In this document: in pieces, positions 43,305-61,764 of the stretch
Numbering within the stretch: position 1 is the first letter of the stretch
Layout of the letters: every line of letters begins with the position of its first letter
IMG/VR virus record: IMGVR_UViG_3300032313_001465
Span: 1-64,000 of that record
Source of the DNA: a virus
DNA length: 64,000 bases
Direction: 5' to 3' (one strand)
Made by a program: the position numbers and the translations under genes
Notes under the pieces: generated by a model
The model's database searches: none
The model's input: the letters and a program-made list of their open reading frames with translations, nothing else
Told to the model about the DNA's origin: nothing

Positions 43305-43382
43305 GGTCAGGTATGGTAGACACAGTAGGGAGAGCCAAAGAGGTATCTACTAAAGTTACAGGTTCGATTCCTGTCCTGACTA
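43305..43382 (+). ncRNA. tRNA-scaffold RNA copy 1 (degenerate D arm)
   Basis: GGTCAGG/CCTGACT acceptor stem; ACAGG-TTCGATT-CCTGT T arm. Confidence 0.7.
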
Positions 43383-43397
43383 CAATAAAATAAAAGT

Positions 43398-43487
43398 ATG
43401 AATAAAGAAGAAAAACAACAGCATTTGATAGTTTGGGTCATAATAGGAATACCTTTATTAGCTTTACTTTATTGTTTATTAACATAA
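43398..43487 (+). CDS. 29-aa hydrophobic peptide
   Basis: MNKEEKQQHLIVWVIIGIPLLALLYCLLT*. Confidence 0.45.
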   Translation: MNKEEKQQHLIVWVIIGIPLLALLYCLLT

Positions 43488-43490
43488 CAT

Positions 43491-43594
43491 AGTCAGGTGG
43501 TGTAATAGAGGCAACACGTGGTTCGAGTCCACAATCTATCTAGTAACGATAGATGCTGATAGGAGCGATACAGGTTCGATTCCTGTCCTGACTA
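43491..43594 (+). ncRNA. tRNA-scaffold RNA copy 2 (extra internal T-loop hairpin)
   Basis: AGTCAGG/CCTGACT, D-like arm, GTGG-TTCGAGT-CCAC, ATCTATC/GATAGAT, T arm. Confidence 0.75.
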
Positions 43595-43623
43595 CTAAAT
43601 TAAATAACTTAAAAAATAAAAAT

Positions 43624-43905
43624 ATGTTAAAAATCGAAGACAAACCAAATTACTTTCTTATAGTAACTCCTGGAGTATATGATGGTCATGAGTTTAATAT
43701 TCTTGACACGGATAAAGGATTATACATCATGTTTAAAGACTATTACGAAAAGGACCCACAATCATTCAATGATATCCAGGAAGAAATTAAAAGCCAGTAT
43801 TTAAACACTAGAGTATCAGGATTAGATGTTGGTTGTAAGTTTAATATGGCTGGTGGCTTTGAACAAGATATTTTTGAAGAATTTGTACGTTACAATGATA
43901 AATAG
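43624..43905 (+). CDS. Hypothetical protein
   Basis: 93 aa. Confidence 0.6.
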   Translation: MLKIEDKPNYFLIVTPGVYDGHEFNILDTDKGLYIMFKDYYEKDPQSFNDIQEEIKSQYLNTRVSGLDVGCKFNMAGGFEQDIFEEFVRYNDK

Positions 43906-44191
43906 AGAATTTAGATTTTTAGATGCTCGTACTAGCGTTAGTGAGTTAGTAAAGGAGTCGGCTGTTAATTTCATGTATGGATTTATTGCTAACACAATCA
44001 CTGTGTTTGTAATTATGAAATATGATATTGCAGTGTTGATTAATTTTCTAATATATTATATGTTTGTGAGTATAGTTATTAATAGAGACAAGTATGAAAC
44101 CCGAGTAGGAAAATACATGATATTTCCAGCTGCCGCTGCATTAGGAGCATTTGTTGGATACAAATTAGCATTCTTTCTTTCACTAAAATAA
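43895..44191 (+). CDS. Membrane protein
   Basis: About three hydrophobic segments; ATG placed at 43895. Confidence 0.6.
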   Translation: MINREFRFLDARTSVSELVKESAVNFMYGFIANTITVFVIMKYDIAVLINFLIYYMFVSIVINRDKYETRVGKYMIFPAAAALGAFVGYKLAFFLSLK

Positions 44192-44217
44192 TTTATTAAT
44201 ATTTATTATAAAATGAT

Positions 44218-44655
44218 ATGGTAAAATTAATAGATATCCTAAATGAAATAGGAGATGCTACATCCAAAAAGTATGATTGGAAGGAAGTTTATAATAATGG
44301 ATATATTGATGAACCAGATGGGGAATCTGAATATGAATTTAAAACCGATTCGGGTATTGAATATGGTGTTCAAATCCATAATATTGGGAAATATTTGGAT
44401 GTTGATTTTGTAGCTGATGGTACTTATGATGAAGTAAATAAAGGAGAGGTTTTTAGTGTGATGGCTACTATTGTCGATATTATAAAAAGCATAGTAGATA
44501 AAGGAGGAATTAAAGGAATTAGATATATAGCTAAATCCAAAGGGAATGATGCTGGTATTGCAAGAGATAGATTATATAGAATATATATTTCAAAACTATA
44601 CCCTAATGTCACTTTTCTACAACAAGGTGGAACAATATTCGCTACACTTAAATAA
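44218..44655 (+). CDS. Hypothetical protein with MVKLIDILNE leader
   Basis: Short leader ending L-N-E; TAATATTTAT upstream. Confidence 0.65.
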   Translation: MVKLIDILNEIGDATSKKYDWKEVYNNGYIDEPDGESEYEFKTDSGIEYGVQIHNIGKYLDVDFVADGTYDEVNKGEVFSVMATIVDIIKSIVDKGGIKGIRYIAKSKGNDAGIARDRLYRIYISKLYPNVTFLQQGGTIFATLK

Positions 44656-44667
44656 AATAAAATAAAA

Positions 44668-44946
44668 ATGCCAAGTTTTACAGAATACCAAGACGTTGAG
44701 ATGGAAATCGAAATCGATCCATCAGATTACTTAGATAGTTGCAGTGATGATGACATAGATGAACTAATTGAAGAATTAGTGGAAAGAGGTTTCATTAAGA
44801 ATAATGACATAATTGACCAATCAGCATTATCAAATAATCTTGATTTCGTTCAAAATATTATGAAATTAGCTAATCCATACAATCGTATGCTTCTAACAGT
44901 AGAAGAGGAGCAGATTTTGGAAAAAATGGCTAGTAGATTTTTATAA
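44668..44946 (+). CDS. Acidic hypothetical protein
   Basis: 92 aa. Confidence 0.6.
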   Translation: MPSFTEYQDVEMEIEIDPSDYLDSCSDDDIDELIEELVERGFIKNNDIIDQSALSNNLDFVQNIMKLANPYNRMLLTVEEEQILEKMASRFL

Positions 44947-44954
44947 TACGAGAC

Positions 44955-45018
44955 CTCATAGCTGAGTCATACGAAATGGTTGGCAAATCCAAATAACGTT
45001 TGTATATTGATGTATAAT
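44955..45018 (+). promoter_or_regulatory. GTCAT-box promoter
   Basis: CTCAT-N6-GTCAT-N9-TTGG-N17-TGTATATT. Confidence 0.75.
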
Positions 45019-45033
45019 TAAAAAATAAAGGTT

Positions 45034-46107
45034 ATGAAATTATCAACACTGTATTCTAGGTCGGTAAACGGCAAGATAAATACATTTACAATTCACATTG
45101 AAGGAAACAAGTATTATACTGTAACTGGATTTTTAGATGGAGTTAAAACTCAATCCCTCCCAACAGTATGTAATGCCAAAACGTATTGTACTGCTGAAGA
45201 GCAAGCAATAAAAGAGGCCACAGCAATTCATCGAAAGAAAATGGAAAGCGGTTCATTTGAAAATGTTTCCGATATTGATAATGAGACATTTTTTGAACCG
45301 ATGCTCGCTCACGATTTCAATAAGGAAAAGCACAAAATCAAATATCCCCTTTATAGTCAACCGAAACTAGATGGTATCCGTTGTTTGGTGAAACGAGACG
45401 GAATGTGGTCAAGAACAGGCAAACCAATAATTTCAGCCCCACACATATTTGAAGCGTTAAAACCATTATTTGAAATTAATCCAAATCTTATATTTGATGG
45501 AGAGTTATATGCTGATAAATTTGCAACCGACTTTAACGCTATATGTTCCTTAGTAAAGAAAACAAAACCAACTCAGCAAGATTTAGAAGATAGTTCTAAA
45601 GCTATTGAATATCACATTTATGATTTACCAAGTTGTAGTGGTGTGTTTTCTGATAGATATGAAGTATTACTTGAATTAATTTTGCCAAAATGTTGTAAAT
45701 TAGTTGAAACCCGCATTGCTAATAATGAAACTGAACTAATGGCTTATTATGAGAACTATGTTGTTAACAACTATGAAGGACAAATGGTTCGTTTAAATAG
45801 CAAATATGAAAATAAAAGATCAAAGTCCTTACTTAAGCACAAGTCATTTATTGATGAAGAATATACAATTTTAGATATTGAAGAAGGAATTGGGAATAAA
45901 AGTGGGATGGTAGGAGCATTTGTATTTGAAAATAGAGATGGTAAACGCTTTAAAGCTAGTCCTAAATTTAATTGGGAAGAATGTACAAAAATGTGGAATA
46001 CAAAACACCAACTAATCGGAAAAACAGCAACAGTTAAATATTTCAACCTAACTCCAGATCATATACCGAGATTTGGATATGTGATTCAGGTAGATCGTTG
46101 GTATTAG
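45034..46107 (+). CDS. ATP-dependent DNA ligase
   Basis: PMLA, QPKLDGIR, FDGELY, YDL, YEGQMVR, RSKSLLK. Confidence 0.92.
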   Translation: MKLSTLYSRSVNGKINTFTIHIEGNKYYTVTGFLDGVKTQSLPTVCNAKTYCTAEEQAIKEATAIHRKKMESGSFENVSDIDNETFFEPMLAHDFNKEKHKIKYPLYSQPKLDGIRCLVKRDGMWSRTGKPIISAPHIFEALKPLFEINPNLIFDGELYADKFATDFNAICSLVKKTKPTQQDLEDSSKAIEYHIYDLPSCSGVFSDRYEVLLELILPKCCKLVETRIANNETELMAYYENYVVNNYEGQMVRLNSKYENKRSKSLLKHKSFIDEEYTILDIEEGIGNKSGMVGAFVFENRDGKRFKASPKFNWEECTKMWNTKHQLIGKTATVKYFNLTPDHIPRFGYVIQVDRWY

Positions 46108-46113
46108 TAAAAC

Positions 46114-46177
46114 GTCATGTAAGTGTCATGCGAAAAATTTGGCAATCCTACACTTTGTTTGTATATTGATGTATAAT
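46114..46177 (+). promoter_or_regulatory. GTCAT-box promoter
   Basis: Exact motif spacing. Confidence 0.8.
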
Positions 46178-46192
46178 TAAAAAATAAAGGTT

Positions 46193-46480
46193 ATGACAAA
46201 GAAAGAATTAAAAAATTTACAGTTAAAAAGCATATTTGCTGCTATTAAAGAAAATTATAATGTAACTTCTGATTTCGAAGATATGGAAGGACATGGATAT
46301 TTCACATTTCAAATTACAGTAGATGGTGTACAATATGCTTTTGATTTAAGCAGAAATGACTTTAGTGTTATAGGATATAAGCTAAAGGGAGATATAGATT
46401 TTACAGAACAAAGGATTCTTGAAACTGAAATAGAACATCTAATTGAACAAACATTAAATAATATTTTTAAATATAAATAA
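46193..46480 (+). CDS. Hypothetical protein
   Basis: 95 aa, after a promoter. Confidence 0.6.
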   Translation: MTKKELKNLQLKSIFAAIKENYNVTSDFEDMEGHGYFTFQITVDGVQYAFDLSRNDFSVIGYKLKGDIDFTEQRILETEIEHLIEQTLNNIFKYK

Positions 46481-46481
46481 A

Positions 46482-46703
46482 ATGATAGTAGATAAGAAAA
46501 AACGAGTAAAAAGTAAGTTGGAGCTTGACCTGTCGGGGCCGGAAGGTAATGCGTTTGTGTTGATGGGCATTGCTCAAAGATGGGCGAAGGAATTGGGATT
46601 GGATAGTAAAGCAGTTATTGCTGACATGATGAGTGGTGACTATGAGCATTTACTTTCAGTAATGGAGAAACATTTTGGTGATCACATTATAATGTATAGA
46701 TAA
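46482..46703 (+). CDS. Hypothetical phage protein
   Basis: DLSGPEGNAFVLMG...MMSGDYEHL. Confidence 0.65.
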   Translation: MIVDKKKRVKSKLELDLSGPEGNAFVLMGIAQRWAKELGLDSKAVIADMMSGDYEHLLSVMEKHFGDHIIMYR

Positions 46704-46849
46704 TATGAAATTTAAGTATAGATTAGCAGTAATAGTTTTAGTGGTGCCTTGCTTATTAATTGATACAATTACCTTACCTATTTTGTTTGTGAATTGGATA
46801 ATAACAGGACATATATTTTCATCTTTCACTCAAGAAATATTAGAACAAC

Positions 46850-47047
46850 ATGAGAAATAGTATGACAGCAGTAGAATGGTTGAAAGAGCAATATTATCAA
46901 TCAGAAGGGAAATTAACAAGGCATGACTTTGAACAAGCCAAGCAAATGGAGAAGGAACAACTAGAAAATGCTTGGTATGCTGGAGATGAAGATGGAGCTA
47001 TACATGAATTCGAATATTATTACAACGAAACTTTTAAAAAAGACTAA
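46850..47047 (+). CDS. Hypothetical protein, QAKxMEKEQ paralog family
   Basis: TAVEWL...QAKQMEKEQ...YYNETFK. Confidence 0.65.
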   Translation: MRNSMTAVEWLKEQYYQSEGKLTRHDFEQAKQMEKEQLENAWYAGDEDGAIHEFEYYYNETFKKD

Positions 47048-47048
47048 A

Positions 47049-47531
47049 ATGGCACAAACAGCAGTAGAAAACATAATCGAAAAACTTAAAGAACAAATAA
47101 GAAAATCTGCTCACAACAAATTAGGAACTAATAGAACTGGAGATTATCGAATTGGATTAATTAAAGCAATAGATCTTTGTAATCAAGCCAAAGAAATGGA
47201 GAAGGAGCAGATGATGAATGCTTGGGCAAAAGGTGTTACAAGTGAAAATAATGTAACAGCAGAACAATACTACAATCAAACATTTAAAAAAGATCAAGCC
47301 AAAGAAATGGAAAAAGACACTGTGAAAGCGAAAGAAGAAACACTAGCAGCTGAAATAAGTTTAAGAATTGATGGAGTATTAACACGATTCATTCACGAAG
47401 ATGAATATAAATCCATAATAGATGCTTATGAAAAAGAAGTAAAGGAATTACATGATAGAATTAGGAATCAATCTAAAATAATAAAGGATTCGATGGATGT
47501 ATTAGGTAAAATCAATAGCTTAATAAAATAA
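47049..47531 (+). CDS. Hypothetical protein, QAKxMEKEQ paralog family
   Basis: QTAVE...QAKEMEKEQ...EQYYNQTF. Confidence 0.65.
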   Translation: MAQTAVENIIEKLKEQIRKSAHNKLGTNRTGDYRIGLIKAIDLCNQAKEMEKEQMMNAWAKGVTSENNVTAEQYYNQTFKKDQAKEMEKDTVKAKEETLAAEISLRIDGVLTRFIHEDEYKSIIDAYEKEVKELHDRIRNQSKIIKDSMDVLGKINSLIK

Positions 47532-47538
47532 AATAAAA

Positions 47539-47769
47539 ATGGAAAAGACACAAACAGCAATTGAAAGCCTAATCGAAAAAATACAACCTCTTATTGATAG
47601 AAGCAAAATAAGCGACACTATGCTTTATAGTTTAGTTGAGGAGCATTTAGAAATGGAAAAAGAACAGGTAATAGATGCTTTTGTAGATAGCAGAATTTTA
47701 TCTATTGCTAATAATTGCAGTAGCGGAGAACAATACTACAACGAAACTTATAAACAACAAGATAAATGA
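47539..47769 (+). CDS. Hypothetical protein, QAKxMEKEQ paralog family
   Basis: QTAIE...EMEKEQ...EQYYNETY. Confidence 0.65.
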   Translation: MEKTQTAIESLIEKIQPLIDRSKISDTMLYSLVEEHLEMEKEQVIDAFVDSRILSIANNCSSGEQYYNETYKQQDK

Positions 47770-48500
47770 AAATTTGGCATATAAGCGACACGCACACCTA
47801 CCATGACTTACTACAAGTTCCTGAAGGAATAGATATGGTAATACACTCAGGTGATTGTAGCAATCCTAGAGACCCATACGCTAATGAATCCGAAGTGAGA
47901 TGTTTTTTAACTTGGTTCTATTCATTAAATATCAAGTATAAAATATACGTTGCTGGTAATCATGATTCAAGCATTGAGAAAGGATTGGTTGATAAGCAAA
48001 CCTTTGATGATTTAGGTATAGTGTATCTTGAGAATGATTACGTTATAATTGAAGGTATAAAAATATGGGGTTCGCCATATACACCTACTTTTGGTCATTG
48101 GTGTTTTATGAAAGCAAGAGATAAGATTAGTAGAGTATGGGAGCACATTCCTGACGACACTGATGTTATTATAACACACGGACCACCTAAAGGAATACTC
48201 GACTTTTCGTATAGTATAGATGGTATGTTTGAAAGATGTGGTTGTAGTGCTTTGATGAAAAGAGTAATTAAGGTACAACCTACATTGTGTTTATTTGGTC
48301 ACATCCACAATTGTGAAGACATCATTAATGCAGGTACTGTGAAGCTTTCAAATTACAAGACCATTTTTAGTAATGGAAGTGTGGTTACTGATGGAAAGTT
48401 TGGTAGATTGAGTAGTAACGGAAATATTTTAGAAATAACAACACCATATGTTTCAGATGACTTTCAAATTGGACCTGATGGTGCTTATGAACATATTTAA
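47766..48500 (+). CDS. Calcineurin-like metallophosphoesterase
   Basis: SDTH, HSGD, AGNHD, THGPP, FGHIH. Confidence 0.9.
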   Translation: MKIWHISDTHTYHDLLQVPEGIDMVIHSGDCSNPRDPYANESEVRCFLTWFYSLNIKYKIYVAGNHDSSIEKGLVDKQTFDDLGIVYLENDYVIIEGIKIWGSPYTPTFGHWCFMKARDKISRVWEHIPDDTDVIITHGPPKGILDFSYSIDGMFERCGCSALMKRVIKVQPTLCLFGHIHNCEDIINAGTVKLSNYKTIFSNGSVVTDGKFGRLSSNGNILEITTPYVSDDFQIGPDGAYEHI

Positions 48501-48587
48501 AAAATTAACAAATGAAAGTACTAATAGTAATAATTGCATGGGAATTAAGTAAATGGATTGTAAATAAAATTTTTAATAAATACTTCA

Positions 48588-48824
48588 ATGACTAAAGGAA
48601 CACTTAAAAAAACAAAAGCAGGTTGGATAGTAATCTATGATGAGATTCTTGGAGAAAACATTGTAAAGAAAAATCAAAACTCATTACCACTACATCCAGA
48701 AGATGTAGAAAAGTTTAAATTATTATCCGAAATGTTTGATAATTTTGAAGCAAGAGTTAATGATGATCCCGAAGTAGAATTTGAAATTATCGATAACACA
48801 GCTAAACTAATACACAACATATGA
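48588..48824 (+). CDS. Hypothetical protein
   Basis: 78 aa. Confidence 0.55.
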   Translation: MTKGTLKKTKAGWIVIYDEILGENIVKKNQNSLPLHPEDVEKFKLLSEMFDNFEARVNDDPEVEFEIIDNTAKLIHNI

Positions 48825-49048
48825 TGTACAGAATTAAAATAGATTACTATAACAAACAAAAAGAAACTTATACGCCACAGGTAAAAGGACTTTTATTTTG
48901 GAGCAATTTAGATACTACAGGGGAAATTTCATGGTTAGGTGGTGGATACTACAATAAAGACTTAGCACTTGGTGCTATTAATAAACACGATTTTAAATAT
49001 GGGAAACCTAGATCTTCTAAAATAGAATATATAAATTTAACAAATTAA
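48821..49048 (+). CDS. Hypothetical protein
   Basis: 75 aa. Confidence 0.55.
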   Translation: MMYRIKIDYYNKQKETYTPQVKGLLFWSNLDTTGEISWLGGGYYNKDLALGAINKHDFKYGKPRSSKIEYINLTN

Positions 49049-49060
49049 AATAAACAAGTT

Positions 49061-49591
49061 ATGATATATTATTATTCAAAACAAGAATTAACAATGAAAA
49101 AGGTGTCTATACTGAATTATGTATGGGCACTATTGATTATACTACTTGTAGGTAGTTCCTTAGGATTCAGCGGAGCCATCAAAGTGAATGATTTCATAGA
49201 AAAGGTACCCGTTATAATAAGACCTAATCAAGAGGTGTTAAACGAAAAGAACCTAAGAAACGAAATTAAAAAGCTAAATTTAAAGTATGAAGACGTTATT
49301 GTAGCCCAATACAAAATTGAGTCTAATGAAGGTAAATCTCATATTTACTTGGAAAACCATAACTTTTTAGGCTTAAAAGAAGCTAAGTTAAGACCAACTA
49401 CTGCTTTAGGGACCAACCTTGGTCACGCTTATTATGATAGGTGGGAATCGTGTCTAATTGACTATAGTTTATGGCAATTATCCAACACTAGAGGCATTAA
49501 TTCGCAGGAAGAATACATTCAGTTGTTAGGTTCAATGTATGCTGAAGACGATTCGTACATGAACAAAATCTACAAGATATTAAATAAATAA
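49061..49591 (+). CDS. Membrane-anchored glucosaminidase (GH73)-like cell-wall hydrolase
   Basis: N-terminal hydrophobic segment; AQYKIES...HNFLGLK...YAED..Y. Confidence 0.6.
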   Translation: MIYYYSKQELTMKKVSILNYVWALLIILLVGSSLGFSGAIKVNDFIEKVPVIIRPNQEVLNEKNLRNEIKKLNLKYEDVIVAQYKIESNEGKSHIYLENHNFLGLKEAKLRPTTALGTNLGHAYYDRWESCLIDYSLWQLSNTRGINSQEEYIQLLGSMYAEDDSYMNKIYKILNK

Positions 49592-49594
49592 GGC

Positions 49595-49652
49595 GTCATG
49601 TAAATGTCATGCGAAAAATTTGGTAATTCCATATTTTATTCGTATATTGATG
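49595..49652 (+). promoter_or_regulatory. GTCAT-box promoter
   Basis: Exact motif spacing. Confidence 0.8.
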
Positions 49653-49672
49653 AATAATAAAAACGTAGAAAT

Positions 49673-49924
49673 ATGAAAGCATATCAAGTATTTAGAGGAG
49701 AAGAAAATAAACATGGATTTCAAGTCTATGATTTAGTTGCTACGTATTTTGATAAAGAAAGGGCATTACAACAATGTGAGCAAATAGTAGCAGAAGAACA
49801 AATATCATCAGGAGATATTTTACAGGAATATGAATCTCATGGAGGTAAATATAAAAGTTGGAATGCTGTAGGTTGGGATATAGTTACCATTGCCCAACTC
49901 AGAGAAATAGAAATAACAAAATAA
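49673..49924 (+). CDS. Hypothetical protein
   Basis: 83 aa. Confidence 0.6.
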   Translation: MKAYQVFRGEENKHGFQVYDLVATYFDKERALQQCEQIVAEEQISSGDILQEYESHGGKYKSWNAVGWDIVTIAQLREIEITK

Positions 49925-49938
49925 CAATAACAATTAAA

Positions 49939-50283
49939 ATGAAAAATCAAGAAACAATTGCACAGCAATTAAAAGTAAAAGAATTCCCATTTGTAATTAG
50001 GGATTCTAAAGGTAATAAAATTTATTGGGAAAACAGTGTTGGGTTATGGTACAAATATGAATATGATTCCAAAAATAATGAAACACATTGGGAATCCAGT
50101 AGTGGATATTGGGAAAGTAGAGAATATGATTCTAAGGGTCTCTGTGTTTATTTCGAAACCAGTAATGGTGTAGTTTTGGATGTTAGAATATTATTACCTA
50201 GAAAAGAAAATGTAGAATTAACTATGGATGAGATAGCAACTAAATTTGGGGTTGATGTAAACCTTTTAAAAATTAAAAAATAA
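49939..50283 (+). CDS. Hypothetical protein with YD-like repeats
   Basis: Repeated EYDSKG/N...W units. Confidence 0.6.
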   Translation: MKNQETIAQQLKVKEFPFVIRDSKGNKIYWENSVGLWYKYEYDSKNNETHWESSSGYWESREYDSKGLCVYFETSNGVVLDVRILLPRKENVELTMDEIATKFGVDVNLLKIKK

Positions 50284-53460: not shown

Positions 53461-54657
53461 ATGAATAAACTAGATAAACAATACACAGACCTACTTCAAG
53501 ACATCTTAGATAATGGAGTAAAGAAACAAACCAGAAATGGAGAAGTGCTATCAGTATTTGGAAGACAAATACGTCATAAAATGAGTGATGGGTTTCCTTT
53601 ACTCACAACTAAAAAGATGGCTTGGAAACAAATCGTAACTGAGTTGATATGGTTCTTACGTGGTGATACAAATATCAAGTATTTGGTTGATAACGATTGT
53701 CATATTTGGGATGGTGATGCTTATAAAAAGTTTACAAAAACTTATGAAAGTATAGATGGTGAGATTACACTACCTCCAGATGACTATATCAATGATGGTG
53801 GTGAGTTACTATCACAAGAAGAATTCATTAACAAAATCAAAACAGATGATGAGTTTGCTAGACAGTGGGGTGATTTAGGACCAATCTACGGTAAGCAATG
53901 GAGAAGATGGACTAAAAAGAAAATGTATCTATCAACCGATGGTTCATATGAGAACATCTATGATGAAGCTGACCAAACGGTTGTTGACCAAATATCAATC
54001 CTAATCAACGACCTTAAAACAAATCCTGATTCAAGACGATTAATGGTTAATGCTTGGAATGTAGGTGAATTAAGTCAAATGACTCTACCGCCTTGTCATT
54101 ATGGATTTCAAGTTTATACAAGAGAGTTGAGTGATGATGAACAGAGAGCTAGATGTCATCCTACAACACCTAACGCATGGGACGACTTAAAAGAGTTTGC
54201 TCGACTGACGGGTAATAGCGTTGAAGAAGCAGCAAAGGCAGTAAGAATATCAACCAGAGCAATCTCATTAATGTGGAATCAACGTTCAGTAGATACATTC
54301 TTAGGTTTACCATTCAACATAGCATCTTATGGATTGCTACTTGAAATAATCGCCAAGGCAGTTAATATGGTTCCAGATGAGCTTATTGGAAATTTAGGTG
54401 ATGTACATTTATATTCAAATCATGTTGAACAAGCTAAAGAACAAATTGGTAGAGAACCATATGGATTACCTAAATTGAACATCAACACAGAGTTTTGGCG
54501 TTATGAAGGTGGTGAGTGTGGTGAAGGACCTTTAGATGCAGCGGCTATTTTTGAATCATTTAAAAATGATGACTTTTGTAGATGCTTATTAGAAGAAGAC
54601 ATACAATTAGGTGATTATCAATCACATCCAACAATTAAAGCACCACTATCAAATTAA
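53461..54657 (+). CDS. thyA: Thymidylate synthase with insertions
   Basis: FPLLTTKK, ELIWF, GPIYGKQW, DSRR, LPPCH, QRSVD.FLGLPFNIASY, HLYSNH. Confidence 0.95.
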   Translation: MNKLDKQYTDLLQDILDNGVKKQTRNGEVLSVFGRQIRHKMSDGFPLLTTKKMAWKQIVTELIWFLRGDTNIKYLVDNDCHIWDGDAYKKFTKTYESIDGEITLPPDDYINDGGELLSQEEFINKIKTDDEFARQWGDLGPIYGKQWRRWTKKKMYLSTDGSYENIYDEADQTVVDQISILINDLKTNPDSRRLMVNAWNVGELSQMTLPPCHYGFQVYTRELSDDEQRARCHPTTPNAWDDLKEFARLTGNSVEEAAKAVRISTRAISLMWNQRSVDTFLGLPFNIASYGLLLEIIAKAVNMVPDELIGNLGDVHLYSNHVEQAKEQIGREPYGLPKLNINTEFWRYEGGECGEGPLDAAAIFESFKNDDFCRCLLEEDIQLGDYQSHPTIKAPLSN

Positions 54658-55074: not shown

Positions 55075-55093
55075 TACATACGTTAAATCATGA

Positions 55094-55117: not shown

Positions 55118-55125
55118 CATAATGA

Positions 55126-55188
55126 GTCATATAAACGTCATATAAAGCGGTTGGCCTTCATGCAAATCGGTCGTATATTGATGTATAA
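55126..55188 (+). promoter_or_regulatory. GTCAT-box promoter
   Basis: Exact motif spacing. Confidence 0.8.
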
Positions 55189-55204
55189 ATAAAAACGTAA
55201 AAAT

Positions 55205-55555
55205 ATGAAACGTACAGTAAATACAAAATTCTACGAATATTCACAAAACAATACTGGTGGTTCGTTTGAAAATTCTGAAACAGATGGAATTTGTGAATAT
55301 GTGATTATTGAAGCATTGAATGCAAACCATGCAAATGCGAGAGCAGAAGATATAGGACTTTATTTTGATGGATGTGAAAATGATATGGATTGTGATTGTT
55401 GTGGTGATAGATGGTACAGAGCAGATGAAAGTGATGGTTCTGATATTCCTTCAATATATGGTACTCCTTTAGAGGACGTGACAAAGACTTTATTTAGAGA
55501 AGAATGTTTTATTCATTATTTAGATGGTACTATTTCTAAAATTATTTTCAAATAA
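55205..55555 (+). CDS. Cys-containing hypothetical phage protein
   Basis: QNNTGG...DCDCCGDRW. Confidence 0.65.
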   Translation: MKRTVNTKFYEYSQNNTGGSFENSETDGICEYVIIEALNANHANARAEDIGLYFDGCENDMDCDCCGDRWYRADESDGSDIPSIYGTPLEDVTKTLFREECFIHYLDGTISKIIFK

Positions 55556-55556
55556 A

Positions 55557-56333
55557 ATGAAAAATTTACACTTAATAAGTACGGACAAATATTCTCCATT
55601 AGCATACTCCACAAATGGAGGTGGACACTTATTTAAAAGCGAACACTACTCACCAATGAAAGAAATGGGAGACTCTTACAAAAATATCTACATCACTTCT
55701 GATGAAGAAATTAAAGTAGGTGACTGGGTTTATTGTAACATAGAGGGTTTTGAACCTGTATTAAAACAAAAAGTTAATCCAATGGAAGTAAATAATAACC
55801 TCTTAATGAAAAAAATCATCGTAACAACAGACCAATCATTAGATGGTATACAAAGTATTGATGATGAGTTCTTAGAATGGTTCGTTAAGAATAGTAGTTG
55901 TGAGGAAGTGCAGGTAGTAACAGATAGAGTTTTTAGATTTGATGAATTTCATCAAAGAGAATTTTTTAATAGACACAAAATCATCATCCCTAAAGAAGAA
56001 CCTAAACTAAACTTATCATTATTAGAATCAAAACTTGATAAAGCACTATCTAAGGAAACAGAAGAATCTCTTACTGATTGGGTGAATGGAAAAAGAACTA
56101 AACAAGAAACACTTGAAGAACGAGCAGCTAGATATGATAATATAAAATTTCCAATACCTTATGGTTATGTTGGTGCAGCAAATGATTTTATTAATGGCTA
56201 TCAATTAGCACAAGAAAGAATGTATAGTGAGGAAGAAGTATTAGATATTTTAGATAAGTTTCTAACATCAATGGTTAAAGGTGAAAAAACAGGTTTAATT
56301 GAACAATGGTTTAATCAATTTAAAAAGAAATAA
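55557..56333 (+). CDS. Hypothetical protein
   Basis: IYITSDEEIK, QETLEE, MYSEEEV. Confidence 0.65.
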   Translation: MKNLHLISTDKYSPLAYSTNGGGHLFKSEHYSPMKEMGDSYKNIYITSDEEIKVGDWVYCNIEGFEPVLKQKVNPMEVNNNLLMKKIIVTTDQSLDGIQSIDDEFLEWFVKNSSCEEVQVVTDRVFRFDEFHQREFFNRHKIIIPKEEPKLNLSLLESKLDKALSKETEESLTDWVNGKRTKQETLEERAARYDNIKFPIPYGYVGAANDFINGYQLAQERMYSEEEVLDILDKFLTSMVKGEKTGLIEQWFNQFKKK

Positions 56334-56337
56334 AATT

Positions 56338-56697
56338 ATGAACAAAGAATTTATTCCATACGAACAAGCACTAGTACTTAAAGAATTAGGATTTGATGAA
56401 CCTTGCTTTGGTTGGTGGTTTGCAGACGAAGAAATGCTTATTATAGATAAATCAACTAAATCTACATCTGAAAACATAATACAAGCACCACTATACCAAC
56501 AAGCATTTAAATTTTTTAGAGAGAAGTATAAGTTATCAGGAACACCTCATTACTTCACAGGTGGGTTTTATTGTTATACAATTAATGACATGAAAGACAC
56601 CAAAGAAAGTAATAGACTATTTACTGAGTTTGAAACCTACAAAGAAGCAGAACTTGAATGCCTTAAAAAATTAATAGAAATAGTTAAAAAGAAATAA
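56338..56697 (+). CDS. Hypothetical protein, KEFIPYEQAL paralog 1
   Basis: Shares both termini with 56699..57148. Confidence 0.7.
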   Translation: MNKEFIPYEQALVLKELGFDEPCFGWWFADEEMLIIDKSTKSTSENIIQAPLYQQAFKFFREKYKLSGTPHYFTGGFYCYTINDMKDTKESNRLFTEFETYKEAELECLKKLIEIVKKK

Positions 56698-56698
56698 C

Positions 56699-57148
56699 AT
56701 GGATAAAGAATTTATTCCATACGAACAAGCATTAGAACTTAAAGAATTAGGGTTTAATGAACCTTGTTTTGGATACCATCTTAACAACGAGTTTCAATTT
56801 TTTGCTAATATAAGAAGTTGCAATAATAATTCAGAGTTTAAATTTTATCCAACTGCACCAACATTCTCTCAATGTTTCAAATGGTTTAGGGATAAGTATG
56901 ATTTAGTACACGAAATAAGTTGGAGTAAGTATAAAGGTGGATTGAATTTTGATTACGATGTTTTCAGTTTAGTTTTACCTACTGATGATGAATTAGGGGA
57001 TGAAGATGATATCGCATCAGATAAATCAATGGAAACATACGATAGTTTGGTTGATAAAGACTTTAGGCACCATGAGTCTAATACCTACGAAGAAGCAGAA
57101 CTTGCTTGTCTTAAAAAATTAATTGAAATAGTAAAAAATGAAAAATAA
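56699..57148 (+). CDS. Hypothetical protein, KEFIPYEQAL paralog 2
   Basis: Shares both termini with 56338..56697. Confidence 0.7.
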   Translation: MDKEFIPYEQALELKELGFNEPCFGYHLNNEFQFFANIRSCNNNSEFKFYPTAPTFSQCFKWFRDKYDLVHEISWSKYKGGLNFDYDVFSLVLPTDDELGDEDDIASDKSMETYDSLVDKDFRHHESNTYEEAELACLKKLIEIVKNEK

Positions 57149-57635
57149 AACACAAATGACACAAAAATTAACAGTAAAAGTAACCGAGGTTTTAAAAATA
57201 CATGAAATAGCATGTCCAAGATGGAAAGCAACCATCTCATCTTATCTATCTAGAATAGATGAAGATCAAAACATAACGTTTTTTCCTGAAGAAATTAAAT
57301 GTATGTTTAAAGCAGCAACCGAAAGTCAATTACCTGTGTTGGAAGAGGTATTTGGTAAAGTAGCAGTGGTAATAGAGTATGATAAATTAAAGACGGGATC
57401 TATTGTTAAATTACATAAAAATAAAAAGGGACAATGTGTTGGAGGTACTGGTGACATGGATCTATCTAAAACGGTGAATATAGTTTTTGCCAACACACCA
57501 CATTCAATAGATTTTCGGGGCAAATTCGTTAAAAAATGTTATTATGCTAGCTATTATACATTTGAACAAAATGGTGTTTTTGCAAGATATAGTTCTGATG
57601 AGTTGGATTACATAGCCGAAGTAATAGAATATTAA
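57138..57635 (+). CDS. Hypothetical protein
   Basis: LKIHEIACPRWK...AAT..Q..VLEEVFG resembles the C-terminus of 63113..63751. Confidence 0.6.
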   Translation: MKNKTQMTQKLTVKVTEVLKIHEIACPRWKATISSYLSRIDEDQNITFFPEEIKCMFKAATESQLPVLEEVFGKVAVVIEYDKLKTGSIVKLHKNKKGQCVGGTGDMDLSKTVNIVFANTPHSIDFRGKFVKKCYYASYYTFEQNGVFARYSSDELDYIAEVIEY

Positions 57636-57652
57636 TCATTTAAAACCGTAAA

Positions 57653-57910
57653 ATGACAGCAGATAGAATCAAAGAAATACAAATGGCAACTACTTATCCT
57701 GATAGTGTAAGTGTTCAACAAGCATTGTTACAAGTTTGGAATGAATGTGAGCAGGAGCACCAAAATAAAGCACATGATGTAACAAGATTTGAAGTTGTTA
57801 GTTGTGATGAGGAAGGCAGAGTATACACAAATTACAATTGCAAAGTGGTATTGTCTTATCAAGATGATGGCAAAACTTTAAAAGCATTTATCACCACAAG
57901 AAACAAATAA
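57653..57910 (+). CDS. Hypothetical protein
   Basis: 85 aa. Confidence 0.6.
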   Translation: MTADRIKEIQMATTYPDSVSVQQALLQVWNECEQEHQNKAHDVTRFEVVSCDEEGRVYTNYNCKVVLSYQDDGKTLKAFITTRNK

Positions 57911-57914
57911 AAAT

Positions 57915-58100
57915 ATGAGAAAAATTACACAAATGTATAGTACAGCAAAGTCTGAGATCATGAGTTTTAAAAAGGAATTTGATGGGTTAGAAACCACAGC
58001 TTTAAAGGTTGTCGTAGGAGGTATCCTGTTTGCTGTGGCTCTATGGTTTGGTTTGTATGTATCTCTTTGGTTAATTGTAATATTACAGGGTTGTGCTTAG
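57915..58100 (+). CDS. Small membrane protein
   Basis: C-terminal hydrophobic segment ending WLIVILQG. Confidence 0.55.
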   Translation: MRKITQMYSTAKSEIMSFKKEFDGLETTALKVVVGGILFAVALWFGLYVSLWLIVILQGCA

Positions 58101-58809
58101 ACACATAATATAGGGCCCAATTCAACGCTGTATAAACGCTTTAACGGCGGTAATGATAGGGAATAAGAATTATGGTGTGTGGAAGTAGATCGTTGGATAA
58201 GAGCAGGTAAATGCGGTGAGGAAAGGGTGTATGTTACCTGTATGCGGGATGGGGACCGTGGAGAGATGGAGGAAGGTAACCAATTTTTCGCGCGCTCGCA
58301 CCCTCTCCGTCGATAACCCTAAAAAAACGTTTCGGGCGCCCTAAACCTCTGTTTATAGCACACGAATAACTAACGCACTATAACATCTGAAAATATTTTG
58401 CAAAAAAATCGACTTTACTATCCTCCTAACATATGTATCGGCAGCAATTACGACGCGAGACATAAGTGTTGGCTACGGCGTAGTGAGTAGTAGATCCCAC
58501 CTCAGTGTGTATATGAATGATACGAACCTCACCTTCACAACAAATGCATCAAAATCGCAATATGCTACAATAAATTAAAGTAGATGGTCTTACCAAAACC
58601 ATTAGGTGTGATGTAACGCGATGCGAAAAGTACCTAACCCAAAACATTAGGATTAATACCCTACCACCATGTAAACCATATTACGGACCATTGCCCGTTG
58701 ACGCAATAAAATTTATATGCTATCTTACTGCCTGTGTTATTGATACACATATTGCTAACACTCTACATATACACGCTGTTCATATCCATGAACGGCTACC
58801 TTTGACTAC
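58101..58809. other. Long GC-enriched non-coding block
   Basis: About 700 bp with no ORF of 60 aa or more; G-rich then C-rich; several palindromes. Confidence 0.6.
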
Positions 58810-58873
58810 GTCATAACTGAGTCATATGAAATGGTTGGCTAGGCGAAACACCGTTCGTATATTGATGTATAAT
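58810..58873 (+). promoter_or_regulatory. GTCAT-box promoter
   Basis: Exact motif spacing. Confidence 0.8.
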
Positions 58874-58888
58874 TAAAAATAACAAATT

Positions 58889-59476
58889 ATGAGTAAAATT
58901 AAAAAGAAACTAAAATTAGTAGATGTAAGTGATATTAAATCTGAAAAATGGTATTTTATTAAACATGATAATCCTAATAATCCATGTTATTTAGTTGAAG
59001 GAGATGATGCTCTTAGAATAATATTTAAATGGTGTGGATTTGATTTTGATGACAAAGAAAAAATGGATAAATTAGGAGGAATAAAATATCTACAAGAAAA
59101 TGATCCAATTCTTAATTTAGCAGAAGGATATGTTGAGAAACCAGGTAAAGGTAGAGGTAGAGGAATGGTTATTTTTGAATTATTTGAATATGAGGAAGGT
59201 GAAAAGAAAATCGATGATTTATTAGGATTAATACCTGGAAAAAGATATTATAGACATAAAAAATGTAAGAGTGGTGTTTATCAAGGGAGTTATTTGGTAG
59301 ATGGAGAGGAAGAGATTCGTTTTAAATATTCTTGGAACCATGATTATAATTGTACATTAATGGAGCTTCATGATAATGATATATGTTTTAAAAATGGAAA
59401 ATGGAGAGATTATACTGAATGTAATGAAGAATTTGATACTAGTTTATGGGATAAAATATATAATATTAAGAAATAA
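58889..59476 (+). CDS. Hypothetical protein
   Basis: 195 aa, after a promoter. Confidence 0.65.
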   Translation: MSKIKKKLKLVDVSDIKSEKWYFIKHDNPNNPCYLVEGDDALRIIFKWCGFDFDDKEKMDKLGGIKYLQENDPILNLAEGYVEKPGKGRGRGMVIFELFEYEEGEKKIDDLLGLIPGKRYYRHKKCKSGVYQGSYLVDGEEEIRFKYSWNHDYNCTLMELHDNDICFKNGKWRDYTECNEEFDTSLWDKIYNIKK

Positions 59477-59488
59477 AAAATAACAAAT

Positions 59489-59698
59489 ATGAAATGGATT
59501 GAAACAAACAAATTGGCTCCCGAATTCGAAAAATTAGTGCTTGGTTATACTGATTCGAAGAAGATAGTTATTGTAAAATGTATTGAAAAAAGATCTCGTA
59601 AAAATGGTGACCAATACTATTGGGAATATGCTGAAGGAGAGGATTGTTATTGTTGTGTTACACATTGGATGGAATTACCATCCGCACCAGAAATGTAA
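59489..59698 (+). CDS. DUF551-like protein
   Basis: MKWI...P...VL...VTHWMELP. Confidence 0.7.
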   Translation: MKWIETNKLAPEFEKLVLGYTDSKKIVIVKCIEKRSRKNGDQYYWEYAEGEDCYCCVTHWMELPSAPEM

Positions 59699-59758
59699 TA
59701 ATATAGTCATATCAGAGAGTTGGCAAATCGAAACACTGTTCGTATATTGATGTATAAT
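59695..59758 (+). promoter_or_regulatory. GTCAT-box promoter
   Basis: GTAAT-N6-GTCAT-N9-TTGG-N17-CGTATATT. Confidence 0.75.
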
Positions 59759-59777
59759 AAAAATTAAAATAAAAAAT

Positions 59778-60236
59778 ATGAAAAATCAATTAATCCAAGT
59801 ATTAAACAGTGATATCCAAAGTGATGTGTTTTATGGTTCATTCCGTACCAAAGTAAAAGGTAAATATATTACAGTAAATGTATCTAACCACATTAAAGAC
59901 ACTACCAAAAAATATGAATTCAGAGCCGCATTCAAATGTAGAGCAGGATTCGTATCAATAGGTGATTATAATACAATACCATATGATGTTATTTCAAGAT
60001 GGGGCCATAATAACCTAATAAACGTTCAGGTGAAATCTGAAGGTGGGAATTGGTTTGATGTTTATACTACCAAAGGTGGTAAATGGTATTCAATTGATAA
60101 AGGATTTTTAGATGTTTTAACAGTTGGAATTATGAGAACATCATTCCCTGATATGTGTGATTATCATATTTGGGAAATTATGGACGCCAAAACATGGGCC
60201 GATAAAGCGTTTACACCAAACGTCATGGTTGCGTAA
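59778..60236 (+). CDS. Hypothetical protein
   Basis: 152 aa. Confidence 0.65.
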   Translation: MKNQLIQVLNSDIQSDVFYGSFRTKVKGKYITVNVSNHIKDTTKKYEFRAAFKCRAGFVSIGDYNTIPYDVISRWGHNNLINVQVKSEGGNWFDVYTTKGGKWYSIDKGFLDVLTVGIMRTSFPDMCDYHIWEIMDAKTWADKAFTPNVMVA

Positions 60237-60285
60237 TATAAAAAATTTGGCGAAGCGGAATAGTGTTCGTATATTGATGTATAAT
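60222..60285 (+). promoter_or_regulatory. GTCAT-box promoter
   Basis: GTCAT-N6-GTAAT-N9-TTGG-N17-CGTATATT. Confidence 0.75.
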
Positions 60286-60299
60286 AAAAAATTAAGAAA

Positions 60300-60521
60300 A
60301 TGATAAACGCAAAAACAAAAGCAGGAGAATTAGTATTAAAATTCATGAGGTTACAAGAACCTAATTATAATTGGTTCAATACAAGGTTAGCAGTAAAATG
60401 TGCTTTAATAACAGTTGATGAAATGTTAAATAACCCAAAGAACAATATGATGGATTTATCTGAGGAACTCCATGATGAATTTTGGAATGCAGTTAGAACA
60501 GAAATTAACCTTATTAAATAA
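60300..60521 (+). CDS. Hypothetical protein
   Basis: 73 aa. Confidence 0.6.
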   Translation: MINAKTKAGELVLKFMRLQEPNYNWFNTRLAVKCALITVDEMLNNPKNNMMDLSEELHDEFWNAVRTEINLIK

Positions 60522-60524
60522 GTA

Positions 60525-60588
60525 GTCACATCTAAGTCATATGAAAAATTTGGCGAAGCGGAACAGTGTTCGTATATTGATGTATAAT
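60525..60588 (+). promoter_or_regulatory. GTCAT-box promoter
   Basis: GTCAC-N6-GTCAT-N9-TTGG-N17-CGTATATT. Confidence 0.78.
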
Positions 60589-60602
60589 AAAAAAATAAAA
60601 AC

Positions 60603-60824
60603 ATGGCAACATTAATTAAAAAAGCAGTAGTACCAAAAATACAAGACATTCATAAATTCGAAATTGGTGAAGTGGTTGAATGGAGTAAACAATTCCATGA
60701 TGGCCGTAGTTATGAAACATGGAAATATTCAGGTGAGATTATCCGAATTAATCCTAAAACAGTTACTGTAGAGGATAGTAGTGGTAATATCTGGAGAGTA
60801 GGATATAAAGAAATTATTTTATAA
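60603..60824 (+). CDS. Small SH3/KOW-like beta-barrel protein
   Basis: FEIGEVV...GEIIRINPKTVTV...WRV. Confidence 0.55.
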   Translation: MATLIKKAVVPKIQDIHKFEIGEVVEWSKQFHDGRSYETWKYSGEIIRINPKTVTVEDSSGNIWRVGYKEIIL

Positions 60825-60826
60825 GT

Positions 60827-60890
60827 GTCATAACTAAGTCATACCGAAGGGTTGGCAGTTGTAAAAATGGTTTGTATATTGATGTATAAT
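60827..60890 (+). promoter_or_regulatory. GTCAT-box promoter
   Basis: Exact motif spacing. Confidence 0.8.
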
Positions 60891-60915
60891 TAAAAATTAA
60901 ATAAAAATAAAGGTT

Positions 60916-61386
60916 ATGTTTAAAGAAAGTAAAAAAATGGGTGAAGCAGTAAGAGCAGGTTCAGAACGTAGAGGTAGACCAGTTAAATCTGATAGTGCCC
61001 GTCAAATGAGATTAAATAAATTTGCTGAGTTAAAAGCAAATGGTATAGTAGTTAAAAGAGGTAGACCAGCTAAAGTAGTGGATCCAAATGCCCCGGTAAT
61101 TGTTAAAACACCTAAGGTTAAGGTACCTAAAGAACCTAAGGCGAAAAAAGCGAAATCAAGCGAGGTAAAAACGGAACCAACAGTTGTGTTGAGTGAGGGT
61201 GTAAACCATAAGACCGTTTCTCATCCAACAGGTAAACCAGTTACTTATATCCGTTCTCCTTATATAGTACAAGCAGCTGGTAAAGGATTTGAGGACGTAG
61301 CTCAAGACGGTGAATTAGAAATTGAAGATATCATTGTGGATGAGTTCGTTCCAAATGAAGATGATATTGCTGAATTAGAAGCATAG
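60916..61386 (+). CDS. AT-hook-containing protein with acidic tail
   Basis: RRGRP and KRGRP, Lys/Pro-rich linker, acidic C-terminus. Confidence 0.65.
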   Translation: MFKESKKMGEAVRAGSERRGRPVKSDSARQMRLNKFAELKANGIVVKRGRPAKVVDPNAPVIVKTPKVKVPKEPKAKKAKSSEVKTEPTVVLSEGVNHKTVSHPTGKPVTYIRSPYIVQAAGKGFEDVAQDGELEIEDIIVDEFVPNEDDIAELEA

Positions 61387-61473
61387 TATTGCTGAGAGAT
61401 AAAGAAGTAAATATATGGAAGAAGTGAGGTTAAGTCCCAACATAGTACATTAATGCTCAGTAATAAAATATAT

Positions 61474-61570
61474 AGTCAGGTGGCGCAATTGGTAGACGTT
61501 GTTCCTCTGTACAAGGAATGTAAAACGAGGTGATCCTCGTAGTATACAGGTTCAAATCCTGTCCTGACTA
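61474..61570 (+). tRNA. tRNA-Tyr(GTA)-like, non-canonical (scaffold copy 3)
   Basis: Acceptor stem, D arm with TGGTAGA, TTCCT-CTGTACA-AGGAA, long variable arm, T arm; 97 nt, C at position 37, no encoded CCA. Confidence 0.6.
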
Positions 61571-61604
61571 CAATTGTTGTGTTATTTTTAGTAATAAAAT
61601 ATAT

Positions 61605-61733
61605 AGTCAGGTGGCGAGTTGGAACACGCACCGAAACATTGACGTAAAAACTTTCTGACAGAAGTACAACGGAGTATCTGCTTTATCAATGTGCTGATGG
61701 ATACTATCACAGGTTCAAGTCCTGTCCTGACTA
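61605..61733 (+). ncRNA. tRNA-scaffold RNA copy 4 (129 nt, expanded core)
   Basis: Same acceptor and T stems and flanks as copy 3, with an unrelated core. Confidence 0.75.
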
Positions 61734-61764
61734 CAATTGTTGTGTTATTTTTTATTATTGGTAA

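Follow-up and report, generated by a model that had tools for sequence, protein, structure and literature searches.

Putative genes for tRNA-shaped RNAs with unrelated cores on a constant class II tRNA-Leu-type frame in a lake phage genome

The stretch of phage DNA analyzed here (the window, 64,000 nucleotides (nt) in full) comprises the first 64 kb of the IMG/VR virus record IMGVR_UViG_3300032313_001465, a genome of 148,581 bp with direct terminal repeats. At two loci, it carries four small elements that resemble transfer RNA (tRNA) genes, at positions 43305-43382, 43491-43594, 61474-61570 and 61605-61733 (copies 1 to 4, with lengths of 78, 104, 97 and 129 nt, respectively), all on the plus strand. 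The four share an acceptor stem (AGUCAGG/CCUGACU), a T arm and discriminator base A, and their cores are unrelated. The 7-bp acceptor stem, the T arm with a UUCRANY loop and the discriminator base are canonical tRNA features, and covariation of both stems is observed among relatives. Judging from architecture and family membership, the elements are almost certainly genes for tRNA-shaped RNAs that do not decode and whose frame is that of a class II tRNA-Leu of bacterial type. A 25-mer of this frame, ACAGGTTCRADTCCTGTCCTGACTA, occurs four times in the window and nowhere else in the 148.6-kb genome, with zero occurrences expected (100 shuffles). The genome has a G+C content of about 30% and carries nearly all its genes on the plus strand; three ordinary tRNA genes (Glu, Gln and Met) lie beyond the window, at 71850-72084. 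The public DNA runs that contain part of this phage are lake and freshwater metagenomes. For cultured phages, a comparison of both loci with 50,697 phage records by megablast and blastn gave zero matches.

All features of the two loci described below lie on the plus strand. The first locus starts with a leader (AAGCAGGUUAGUUCGAAAUAAAAGGGUA..., 43260-43304) that is near-identical in the closest relatives, L150 and L151, despite different cores downstream. In copy 1 (43305-43382), a G1.U72 acceptor stem, the T arm and A73 surround a 7-bp stem with a 25-nt loop that replaces the core. Just UGGUAGAC of its D loop remains and the 5' strand of the D stem is gone. A micro open reading frame (ORF) of 29 codons with a hydrophobic tail (MNKEEKQQHLIVWVIIGIPLLALLYCLLT, 43398-43487) begins 16 nt 3' of copy 1 and stops 3 nt 5' of copy 2, in an exchangeable spacer between the two frames. 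Copy 2 (43491-43594) comprises the acceptor stem, a 4-bp D arm, two inner hairpins, the T arm and A73. The first inner hairpin is a second T-arm-like structure (GUGG-UUCGAGU-CCAC) and the other is a 7-bp hairpin with the loop UAGUAAC. At the second locus, a 15-nt leader (61459-61473), identical to that of copy 4, precedes copy 3 (61474-61570), whose cloverleaf is of class II and complete, including a 3-bp D stem as well as a long variable arm. Its anticodon-like stem of 5 bp (GUUCC/GGAAU) carries a 9-nt loop, UCUGUACAA. By letter comparison, the interval 61571-61604 consists of the copy 3 trailer (61571-61589), which equals the copy 4 trailer, and the copy 4 leader (61590-61604). Copy 4 itself (61605-61733) holds the acceptor stem, a 3-bp D stem, G15:C48, a 79-nt core, the T arm and A73, and its trailer (CAAUUGUUGUGUUAUUUUU, 61734-61752) is also kept 3' of the second frame in relative L149.

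A preliminary description of this DNA had given exactly these coordinates and this strand, the shared motif of acceptor stem, T arm and discriminator A, and a D-like arm in three copies, which are copies 2, 3 and 4. Its two pairs of identical flanks (61459-61485 = 61590-61616 and 61558-61589 = 61721-61752) agree letter by letter, and the 3' block of identity even begins one base earlier, at 61557/61720. The further statement that the cores differ completely is right in that they are unrelated, the hexamer GUACAA of copies 3 and 4 being the sole similarity; for copy 3, where a hairpin like an anticodon arm and a variable arm of class II persist, it is overstated. That each copy folds is borne out by energy for copies 2 and 3 (z = -2.9 and -3.0 versus shuffles).

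Annotation programs treat the copies unequally. Copies 2 and 3 exceed the gathering cut-off of the Rfam tRNA family RF00005 (29 bits), with 38.5 and 36.8 bits, respectively. They do so via the acceptor, D and T arms while the model skips long insertions (25 nt and 24 nt in copy 2). Copies 1 and 4 are not reported by RF00005 even at an E-value of 5 or less, and Rfam families other than tRNA give zero matches to the four elements. ARAGORN calls a single element, copy 3, as tRNA-??? (gtac); copy 1 is thus called by neither program. No anticodon arm (a 5-bp stem and a 7-nt loop with U33, an anticodon and purine 37) is present in copies 1, 2 and 4. Since unrelated modules replace the anticodon and variable arms, the RNAs cannot decode. 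Other candidate assignments were discarded. A possible fifth element at 27843-27913 is a chance match inside a 480-codon ORF. A transfer-messenger RNA (tmRNA) does not fit the U:A at 3:70 and the lengths of 78-129 nt, and neither ARAGORN nor Rfam calls a tmRNA in the window. For an intron-containing tRNA, the Rfam searches return no intron family, and the intron mode of ARAGORN, which turns copies 2 and 3 into tRNA-Pyl(cta) with 'introns' of 14 nt and 4 nt, respectively, leaves no normal anticodon loop.

The frame recurs widely. An IMG/VR scan for its 3' half, ACAGGTTCNANTCCTGTCCTGACTA, whose counts are lower bounds, found at least 150 sites in at least 120 contigs, and among the matches listed a matching 5' strand, RGTCAGG, lies 69-191 nt upstream in 135 of 150 sites. 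A generic detector, which requires a perfect acceptor of 7 bp along with a T loop on a 5-bp stem and was run on all fetched loci, yielded 188 distinct elements with the AGUCAGG frame, the cores of which fall into 164 clusters. ARAGORN labels 24 of the 188 elements as tRNAs, with Cys, Glu, Lys, Pro, Val and other identities on one and the same frame; such arbitrary identities mark the calls as artefacts. A scan of prokaryotes (one genome per species, 185,579 species) gave 23 matching contigs, all from metagenome-assembled genomes and many of them from Bacteroidota. As only such contigs match and zero normal tRNAs are found among their elements, the frame is not a host tRNA gene. The family resides in uncultured phages, mostly from freshwater, and the host of the present phage is perhaps a member of the Bacteroidota. 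Other acceptor frames exist as well (RCUCAAG, GGUCAAG and UGUCAGG), in which acceptor and T stems covary and the discriminator is mostly A73 and sometimes G73. This points to selection on the shape, beyond the AGUCAGG sequence alone.

In the 5' half of the frame, the constant sequence U8-GGCGGAAU(U)GGUAGACGC represents the D arm of a bacterial class II tRNA-Leu, and the D arm UGGCGGAAU(U)GGUAGACGC is also found in canonical tRNA-Leu genes of the same contigs. Positions that build the tertiary core of a tRNA are retained across the 188 elements: U8 in 98%, A14 in 89% and A15 in 87%, and G18G19 forms part of the typical D loop. At position 48, which directly precedes the T stem, U is found in 81% and a pyrimidine in 91% of the elements, even though this position adjoins the hypervariable core and the three bases 5' of it are random. 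Moreover, positions 15 and 48 covary: A15 occurs with U48 in 129 out of 139 cases and G15 with C48 in seven out of 11 (Fisher test, 1.7e-5). Canonical tRNAs of the same contigs follow the same pattern, and copy 4 of the window is an example of G15:C48. Such a tertiary pair would make sense only in an RNA with a tRNA-like fold.

The flanks carry the processing signature of tRNA genes, in elements that were collected without selection on flanks. T at position -1 is found in 81% of the elements and in 66% of 265 real tRNA genes of the same contigs, A predominates at -2 in both groups, C occupies +1 in 98% and 100%, respectively, and the trailer triplet is CAA or CTA in both. All four window copies follow this pattern. 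Maturation by the same ribonuclease (RNase) P, 3'-end and CCA machinery as for tRNAs is hence likely on sequence grounds. Phage-encoded enzymes were sought (a CCA-adding enzyme, class Ia synthetase, L/F-transferase, FemAB and cyclodipeptide synthase) and none was found; given the lack of a phage CCA-adding enzyme, host enzymes would do the processing. As for charging, the leucyl-tRNA synthetase (LeuRS) of E. coli requires A73, the D/T-loop contacts G18:U55, G19:C56 and U54:A58, A15:U48 and the D-loop geometry, while the anticodon and variable arms are dispensable, as tRNA-Leu variants without both are still leucylated (PMC9976931). By sequence, the corresponding features (A73, U8:A14, 15:48, G18G19 and the T loop) are present in copies 2, 3 and 4, and copy 1 lacks the D stem. 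The part kept by the family is exactly the part required by LeuRS, which makes leucylation plausible; we consider it a real possibility that these RNAs are leucylated, although we would not go as far as to expect it.

Cores 2, 3 and 4 recur in other phages. Copy 3 has relatives in about a dozen viral contigs. Across copy 3 and six of these relatives (seven distinct sequences), 98.5% of the cells are paired and nine pairs are compensatory, versus 0 out of 500 shuffles. The 5-bp stem of this family (GUUCC/GGAAY) carries the 9-nt loop NNNGUACAA, and in L239 the same core sits on another acceptor stem, GUUGGGA/UCCCAAC, with G73. The core of copy 2 is nearly unchanged in five metagenome contigs that represent three unrelated contexts, and its T stem covaries (ACAGG/CCUGU to ACCAG/CUGGU) around the constant core. 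Its sub-class with a second T-arm-like hairpin also includes L045, L133 and L102, as well as RNA2 of phage T5. Copy 4 (window 61602-61734, 133 nt) is 100% identical in L274 and L282 and 98.5% identical in L294, and both leader and trailer differ in each case. Scans with 15-mers for cores 2 and 4 gave mostly chance matches and three genuine loci, all of core 4. Conservation between phages is found for cores 2, 3 and 4, and core 1 has no relative by an exact 20-mer.

Two side observations concern the cores of other family members. In L244 (913-1009) and L245 (256-351), which belong to the copy 3 family, the 5' frame, core and T arm are kept and unrelated sequence after CCUGUCCU replaces the 3' acceptor strand; by their sequence, they look like broken recombination products. 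L018 and L048 have different stems (ACCAC/GUGGU and CCUUGC/GCAAGG) with the same 8-nt loop, UAAUGAAU, at the position of the anticodon arm, which may be a small conserved loop motif.

Phages very likely swap whole modules, together with adjoining spacers or genes, through crossovers located in the two constant halves (5' and 3') of the frame. In relatives L149, L150 and L151, the flanking proteins are 84-95% identical and the frames, leaders and trailers are kept at both loci, and the cores are all different. The spacer between frames 1 and 2, which holds the 29-codon ORF in the window, is unrelated and non-coding in L150, L151 and L282. The full identity of copy 4 over 133 nt in L274 and L282 is observed although the adjoining genes are 79-83% identical. 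L282 has a mosaic order, with a copy-4 element, a homologue of genome positions 64314-64829 (79%), two frames and a homologue of window positions 43569-44217 (83%); the latter homology starts within the T arm. What copies 3 and 4 have in common is limited to leader, trailer and the outermost 12-13 nt of the frame, as expected from crossovers in AGUCAGGUGGCG and CCUGUCCUGACUA. Furthermore, in lake metagenome contigs aligned to the window, the two halves of the frame flank other cores. For example, one such contig carries a 34-nt insert that forms a portion of the core in the 75-nt L071 element. Duplication followed by decay explains neither the core swaps in the relatives, nor the L282 junctions, nor the pattern of copies 3 and 4. 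The early judgment that a simple decaying duplication would not give this picture is therefore upheld: the frame is fixed, and the cores are unrelated yet conserved and are swapped at constant ends.

Among the genes around the frames, the top families are the terminase large subunit, DUF932, a SegE-like GIY-YIG endonuclease and a metallophosphatase. The genome encodes two DUF932 paralogues (PF06067, phrog_12094), one in the window just 5' of copy 1 (42367-43167) and one at genome positions 66542-67330. The first is 64-95% identical in at least 80 viral contigs, usually with tRNA or tRNA-like genes following it. As a lead for a partner protein, the DUF932 protein was set aside: it has no sequence match in the PDB, and its AlphaFold model (predicted local distance difference test score of 74) has no credible fold match. 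In many related phages, a conserved tRNA-shaped RNA of 121-146 nt lies about 190 nt 3' of the DUF932 gene, in the place of window copies 1 and 2 (L178:3758-3898, L204:3487-3628, L207:3487-3610, L220:3487-3626 and about 40 more loci). Its acceptor and T stems covary, its core is conserved and some members have a hairpin insertion in the D loop. Within the core, the loop UUAUAG pairs with a downstream CUAUAA and covaries to UUAUAA/UUAUAA, which suggests a pseudoknot.

Other features of the neighborhood deserve mention. Directly 3' of copy 4, positions 61765-61984 are G+C-rich and structured (z = -2.5 versus shuffles) and end in a hairpin and a T run. This region is partly conserved in L149 and has relatives in lake metagenomes with many 1-3-nt indels, a pattern that fits a non-coding RNA. 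A 398-codon gene at 53461-54657 reaches a summed depth in lake-metagenome contigs far above that of its neighbors and is probably widely conserved among lake phages or bacteria. In L022 (4124-4186), a near-threshold match to the Rfam freshwater-1 orphan motif (70.1 bits; cut-off 72) is located within an array of phage tRNA genes and frame elements, and in L079 (553-939) a phage tmRNA gene (RF00023, 68.8 bits) adjoins two frame elements.

Taken together, we consider exchangeable structured modules on a constant class II tRNA-Leu frame, processed by the host and acting in trans, the best explanation overall, and one that is on balance probably correct. The elements would be transcribed with their neighbors, after which RNase P, the tRNA 3'-end enzymes and the CCA enzymes of the host would excise RNAs with an L-shaped fold. 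These may be charged with leucine, and the variable module would act in trans as a stable RNA ligand (a decoy, sponge or regulator) for a factor of the host or of a rival phage. Such a role would explain both the turnover of modules and their horizontal exchange; nonetheless, that the modules are decoys or regulators is a tentative suggestion. More speculative still is the idea that phages of lake bacteria draw on a common stock of RNA modules, hundreds in number and passed on horizontally, on one leucine-accepting frame without an anticodon that the host would process, provide with CCA and perhaps charge. The modules would be used as RNA-level weapons or regulators, for instance as sponges or decoys for host defense or translation factors, with new modules gained by recombination at the constant ends of the frame. 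The interpretation given in the preliminary description is partly supported in this light: its structural half was correct and now has a firmer basis, whereas its functional half, in which the frame would mature and present cargo such as anticodon-nuclease decoys, aptamers or regulators, is still conjecture.

Several results weigh against the proposal of trans-acting modules on a host-processed frame. The folding energy of copy 4 does not beat that of shuffles (z = -0.4) and that of copy 1 is weak (z = -1.7), so that energy alone does not show that each copy folds, as had been claimed. Copy 1, without a D stem and without relatives (its core has none in IMG/VR by exact 20-mer), is possibly a decayed member of the family. 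Among the public runs listed, no RNA run contains the phage, and no RNA evidence was found for its relatives. A recurrent partner protein did not emerge from clustering 2,275 ORFs from 143 loci, as no family occurs in more than 16 loci. The cores themselves contain no Rfam family at an E-value of 1 or less, in the window or in 15 related loci. The enrichment of k-mers in them is weak and accounted for by sub-families (GUACAA is seen nine times versus about six expected). The longest exact complementarity of the four cores to the phage genome is no greater than that of shuffled cores, which speaks against an antisense role. Without an RNA family, motif or antisense target, the role of the cargo is a guess; a possible pairing of GUACAAGG with a conserved stretch of 16S ribosomal RNA was given no weight. 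With regard to charging, the LeuRS requirements are those of E. coli, from which the host of this phage may differ, and since a class II body tolerates insertions anyway, the tRNA-Leu type alone does not prove charging. Finally, the near-invariant sequence of the frame could reflect recombination or selfish spread rather than RNA function.

The last point leads to alternatives in which the frame itself, and not its cargo, matters. The frames could serve as tRNA 'punctuation' and recombination linkers, in which case they would provide RNase P and RNase Z cut sites that free small RNAs or messenger RNAs of micro-ORFs, as well as blocks of homology, and the cores would do little. The 29-codon ORF, wedged between copies 1 and 2 at 16 nt and 3 nt from the frames, fits this reading, as do inter-frame spacers that vary as much between relatives as the cores do, mosaic junctions inside the frames and flanks with the signature of tRNA genes. 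It leaves unexplained, however, why cores 2, 3 and 4 are conserved across contexts with compensatory changes and why the long RNA linked to DUF932 keeps a covarying, pseudoknotted core, and an ordinary tRNA would be an equally good cut site. We therefore regard this alternative as unlikely in its pure form, with the remark that both roles may coexist.

Somewhat less probable again is a selfish mobile element that spreads between co-infecting phages by homing (GIY-YIG or HNH endonucleases) or by recombination, with RNAs that bring no benefit. The near-invariance of the frame sequence across unrelated phage types and the full identity of copy 4 amid genes of about 80% identity would follow naturally, and SegE-like GIY-YIG genes lie near frames at eight loci. 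There is a precedent in phage T4, where the GIY-YIG endonuclease SegB is encoded within the tRNA cluster and is cited, in the references of PMC3014915, as needed for the T4 tRNA region to be inherited preferentially. Yet, an endonuclease gene is absent near most loci. Furthermore, an element that acts at the DNA level need not keep the tertiary-core positions, A73 and the processing flanks as functional tRNAs do, and it gives no reason for cores that covary at the RNA level.

We find it very unlikely that at least copy 3 is a decoding tRNA, either resembling a tRNA-Tyr(GUA) with C37 or with an expanded loop for a four-base codon or frameshifting. Its class II cloverleaf is complete and covarying, a sixth pair, U-A, would give the loop CUGUACA with U33 followed by GUA, and ARAGORN reads the four-base anticodon gtac. 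That loop forms only with C37, however, and position 37 is C in all relatives of copy 3. The first loop bases of the six relatives are GAA, AAA or GAG, so that they have no sixth pair and no U33 and are left with 9-nt loops. The same frame, moreover, bears 164 non-decoding cores. Neither does the genome, in which no search for programmed frameshift sites was made, call for an additional decoder, as stop-to-stop reading frames of at least 100 codons already span 88.7% of it in the standard code and readthrough of TAG or TGA adds just 2.5 points; this rules out an alternative genetic code or suppressor tRNA. Decaying tRNA pseudogenes from duplication or intron-interrupted tRNA genes, to which the half-lost D stem and missing relatives of copy 1 and the tRNA-Pyl(cta) calls for copies 2 and 3 might be taken to point, are highly improbable, as decay would erode frame and core alike instead of leaving a near-invariant frame with cores replaced wholesale and conserved between phages (which already contradicts it for copies 2-4), and as the inserts of 20-130 nt are far below group I size and match no intron family. 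Moreover, no normal anticodon loop is left upon removal of the ARAGORN 'introns', and a CUA suppressor would find no TAG recoding to serve in this genome.

If the modules indeed are decoys or regulators, they would constitute a new RNA-borne layer of phage-host conflict and would supply, as a natural toolkit, stable scaffolds for RNA display along with aptamer-like modules. The shared library, if it exists, would parallel in nature what the engineered tRNA scaffold does by design, and at the RNA level it would resemble exchangeable anti-defense gene cassettes. Current annotation overlooks the genes with this frame or mislabels them as tRNAs with arbitrary anticodons.

Several known RNAs use a tRNA-like acceptor/T-arm domain for processing, stability or charging without decoding, namely tmRNA, the tRNA-like structures of plant viruses and YrlA. 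In the engineered 'tRNA scaffold', a foreign RNA takes the place of the anticodon arm, which is the same design as in the window elements. Each of the natural examples differs in a major respect: tmRNA is alanine-specific (G3:U70), about 350 nt long and dependent on SmpB, the viral tRNA-like structures stand at the ends of RNA genomes, and the connectivity of YrlA is circularly different. To our knowledge, none of these, the engineered scaffold included, consists of hundreds of exchangeable inserts on one frame. The Rfam models of tmRNA and YrlA do not match the elements of the window. In the literature searched, no description was found of a single near-invariant tRNA-Leu frame, of hundreds of cargos or of cassette-like exchange, and the bacterial tRNA mimics treated in a 2026 preprint belong to other families. 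A further point of comparison is the class II tRNA-Leu of bacteria and phages (RF00005), with which the frame has in common the acceptor, the 3-bp D stem and D-loop sequence, the T arm, A73, U8, A14, A15:U48 and the gene flanks; the 7-nt anticodon loop and Leu anticodon of this tRNA are found in none of the copies.

The architecture itself, an acceptor helix and T arm around a large core without an anticodon, is by direct comparison also that of RNA1 and RNA2 of phage T5 and of RNA C of phage T4, which are the nearest known counterparts. The T5 RNAs (AY543070, 30501-30644 and 32959-33083) are annotated as 'tRNA-like stable RNA with unknown functions' and map to a tRNA cluster that also contains homing-endonuclease genes and small ORFs. 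RNA1 combines a 7-pair acceptor helix (one mismatch) and a tRNA-Leu-type D arm (GCCGGAAUUGGUAGACGG) with a T arm and, in place of an anticodon arm, a core of about 75 nt; it aligns end to end with RF00005 (131 nt, 24 bits). Like window copy 2 and L102, RNA2 contains a second T-arm-like hairpin in its interior (CUCGUUCGAUUCGAG), in addition to a 7-bp acceptor and a T arm (GCAGGUUCGAAUCCUGU) nearly the same as that of the window frame. They differ in having other acceptor sequences, no AGUCAGG frame and, apparently, U (RNA1) or G (RNA2) instead of A after the helix, and they are not known to have been described as one frame with many cargos. T4 RNA C (species 1, 139 nt) ends with the T arm CCGGG-UUCGAAU-CCCGG and a 7-nt strand; except for two U.U mismatches, this strand is complementary to the 5' end, and the resulting helix surrounds a large core. 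RNA C appears late in infection and has been verified by Northern analysis, and its role is not established (PMC9697503, PMC3014915). The T4 cluster likewise holds a GIY-YIG homing endonuclease gene, segB. RNA C lacks a tRNA-Leu-type D arm, a Rfam tRNA match at an E-value of 1 or less and sequence similarity to the frame, and RNA D, the other stable RNA of this cluster, has no tRNA shape. The kind of RNA thus appears to be known in outline from T5 RNA1 and RNA2 and T4 RNA C, and the pattern of frame, cargo and exchange is what would be new. The tRNA-like stable RNAs of T4 and T5 have been without an assigned function for some fifty years, and the window and its relatives show that, far from being oddities, these RNAs are the cultured fraction of a very large and actively exchanged family of phage RNAs, with one tRNA-Leu frame and many cargos. 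This design makes the old T4/T5 question testable, through processing, CCA addition and leucylation of the frame, through the ligands of the modules and by tracking them against the defense repertoires of hosts.

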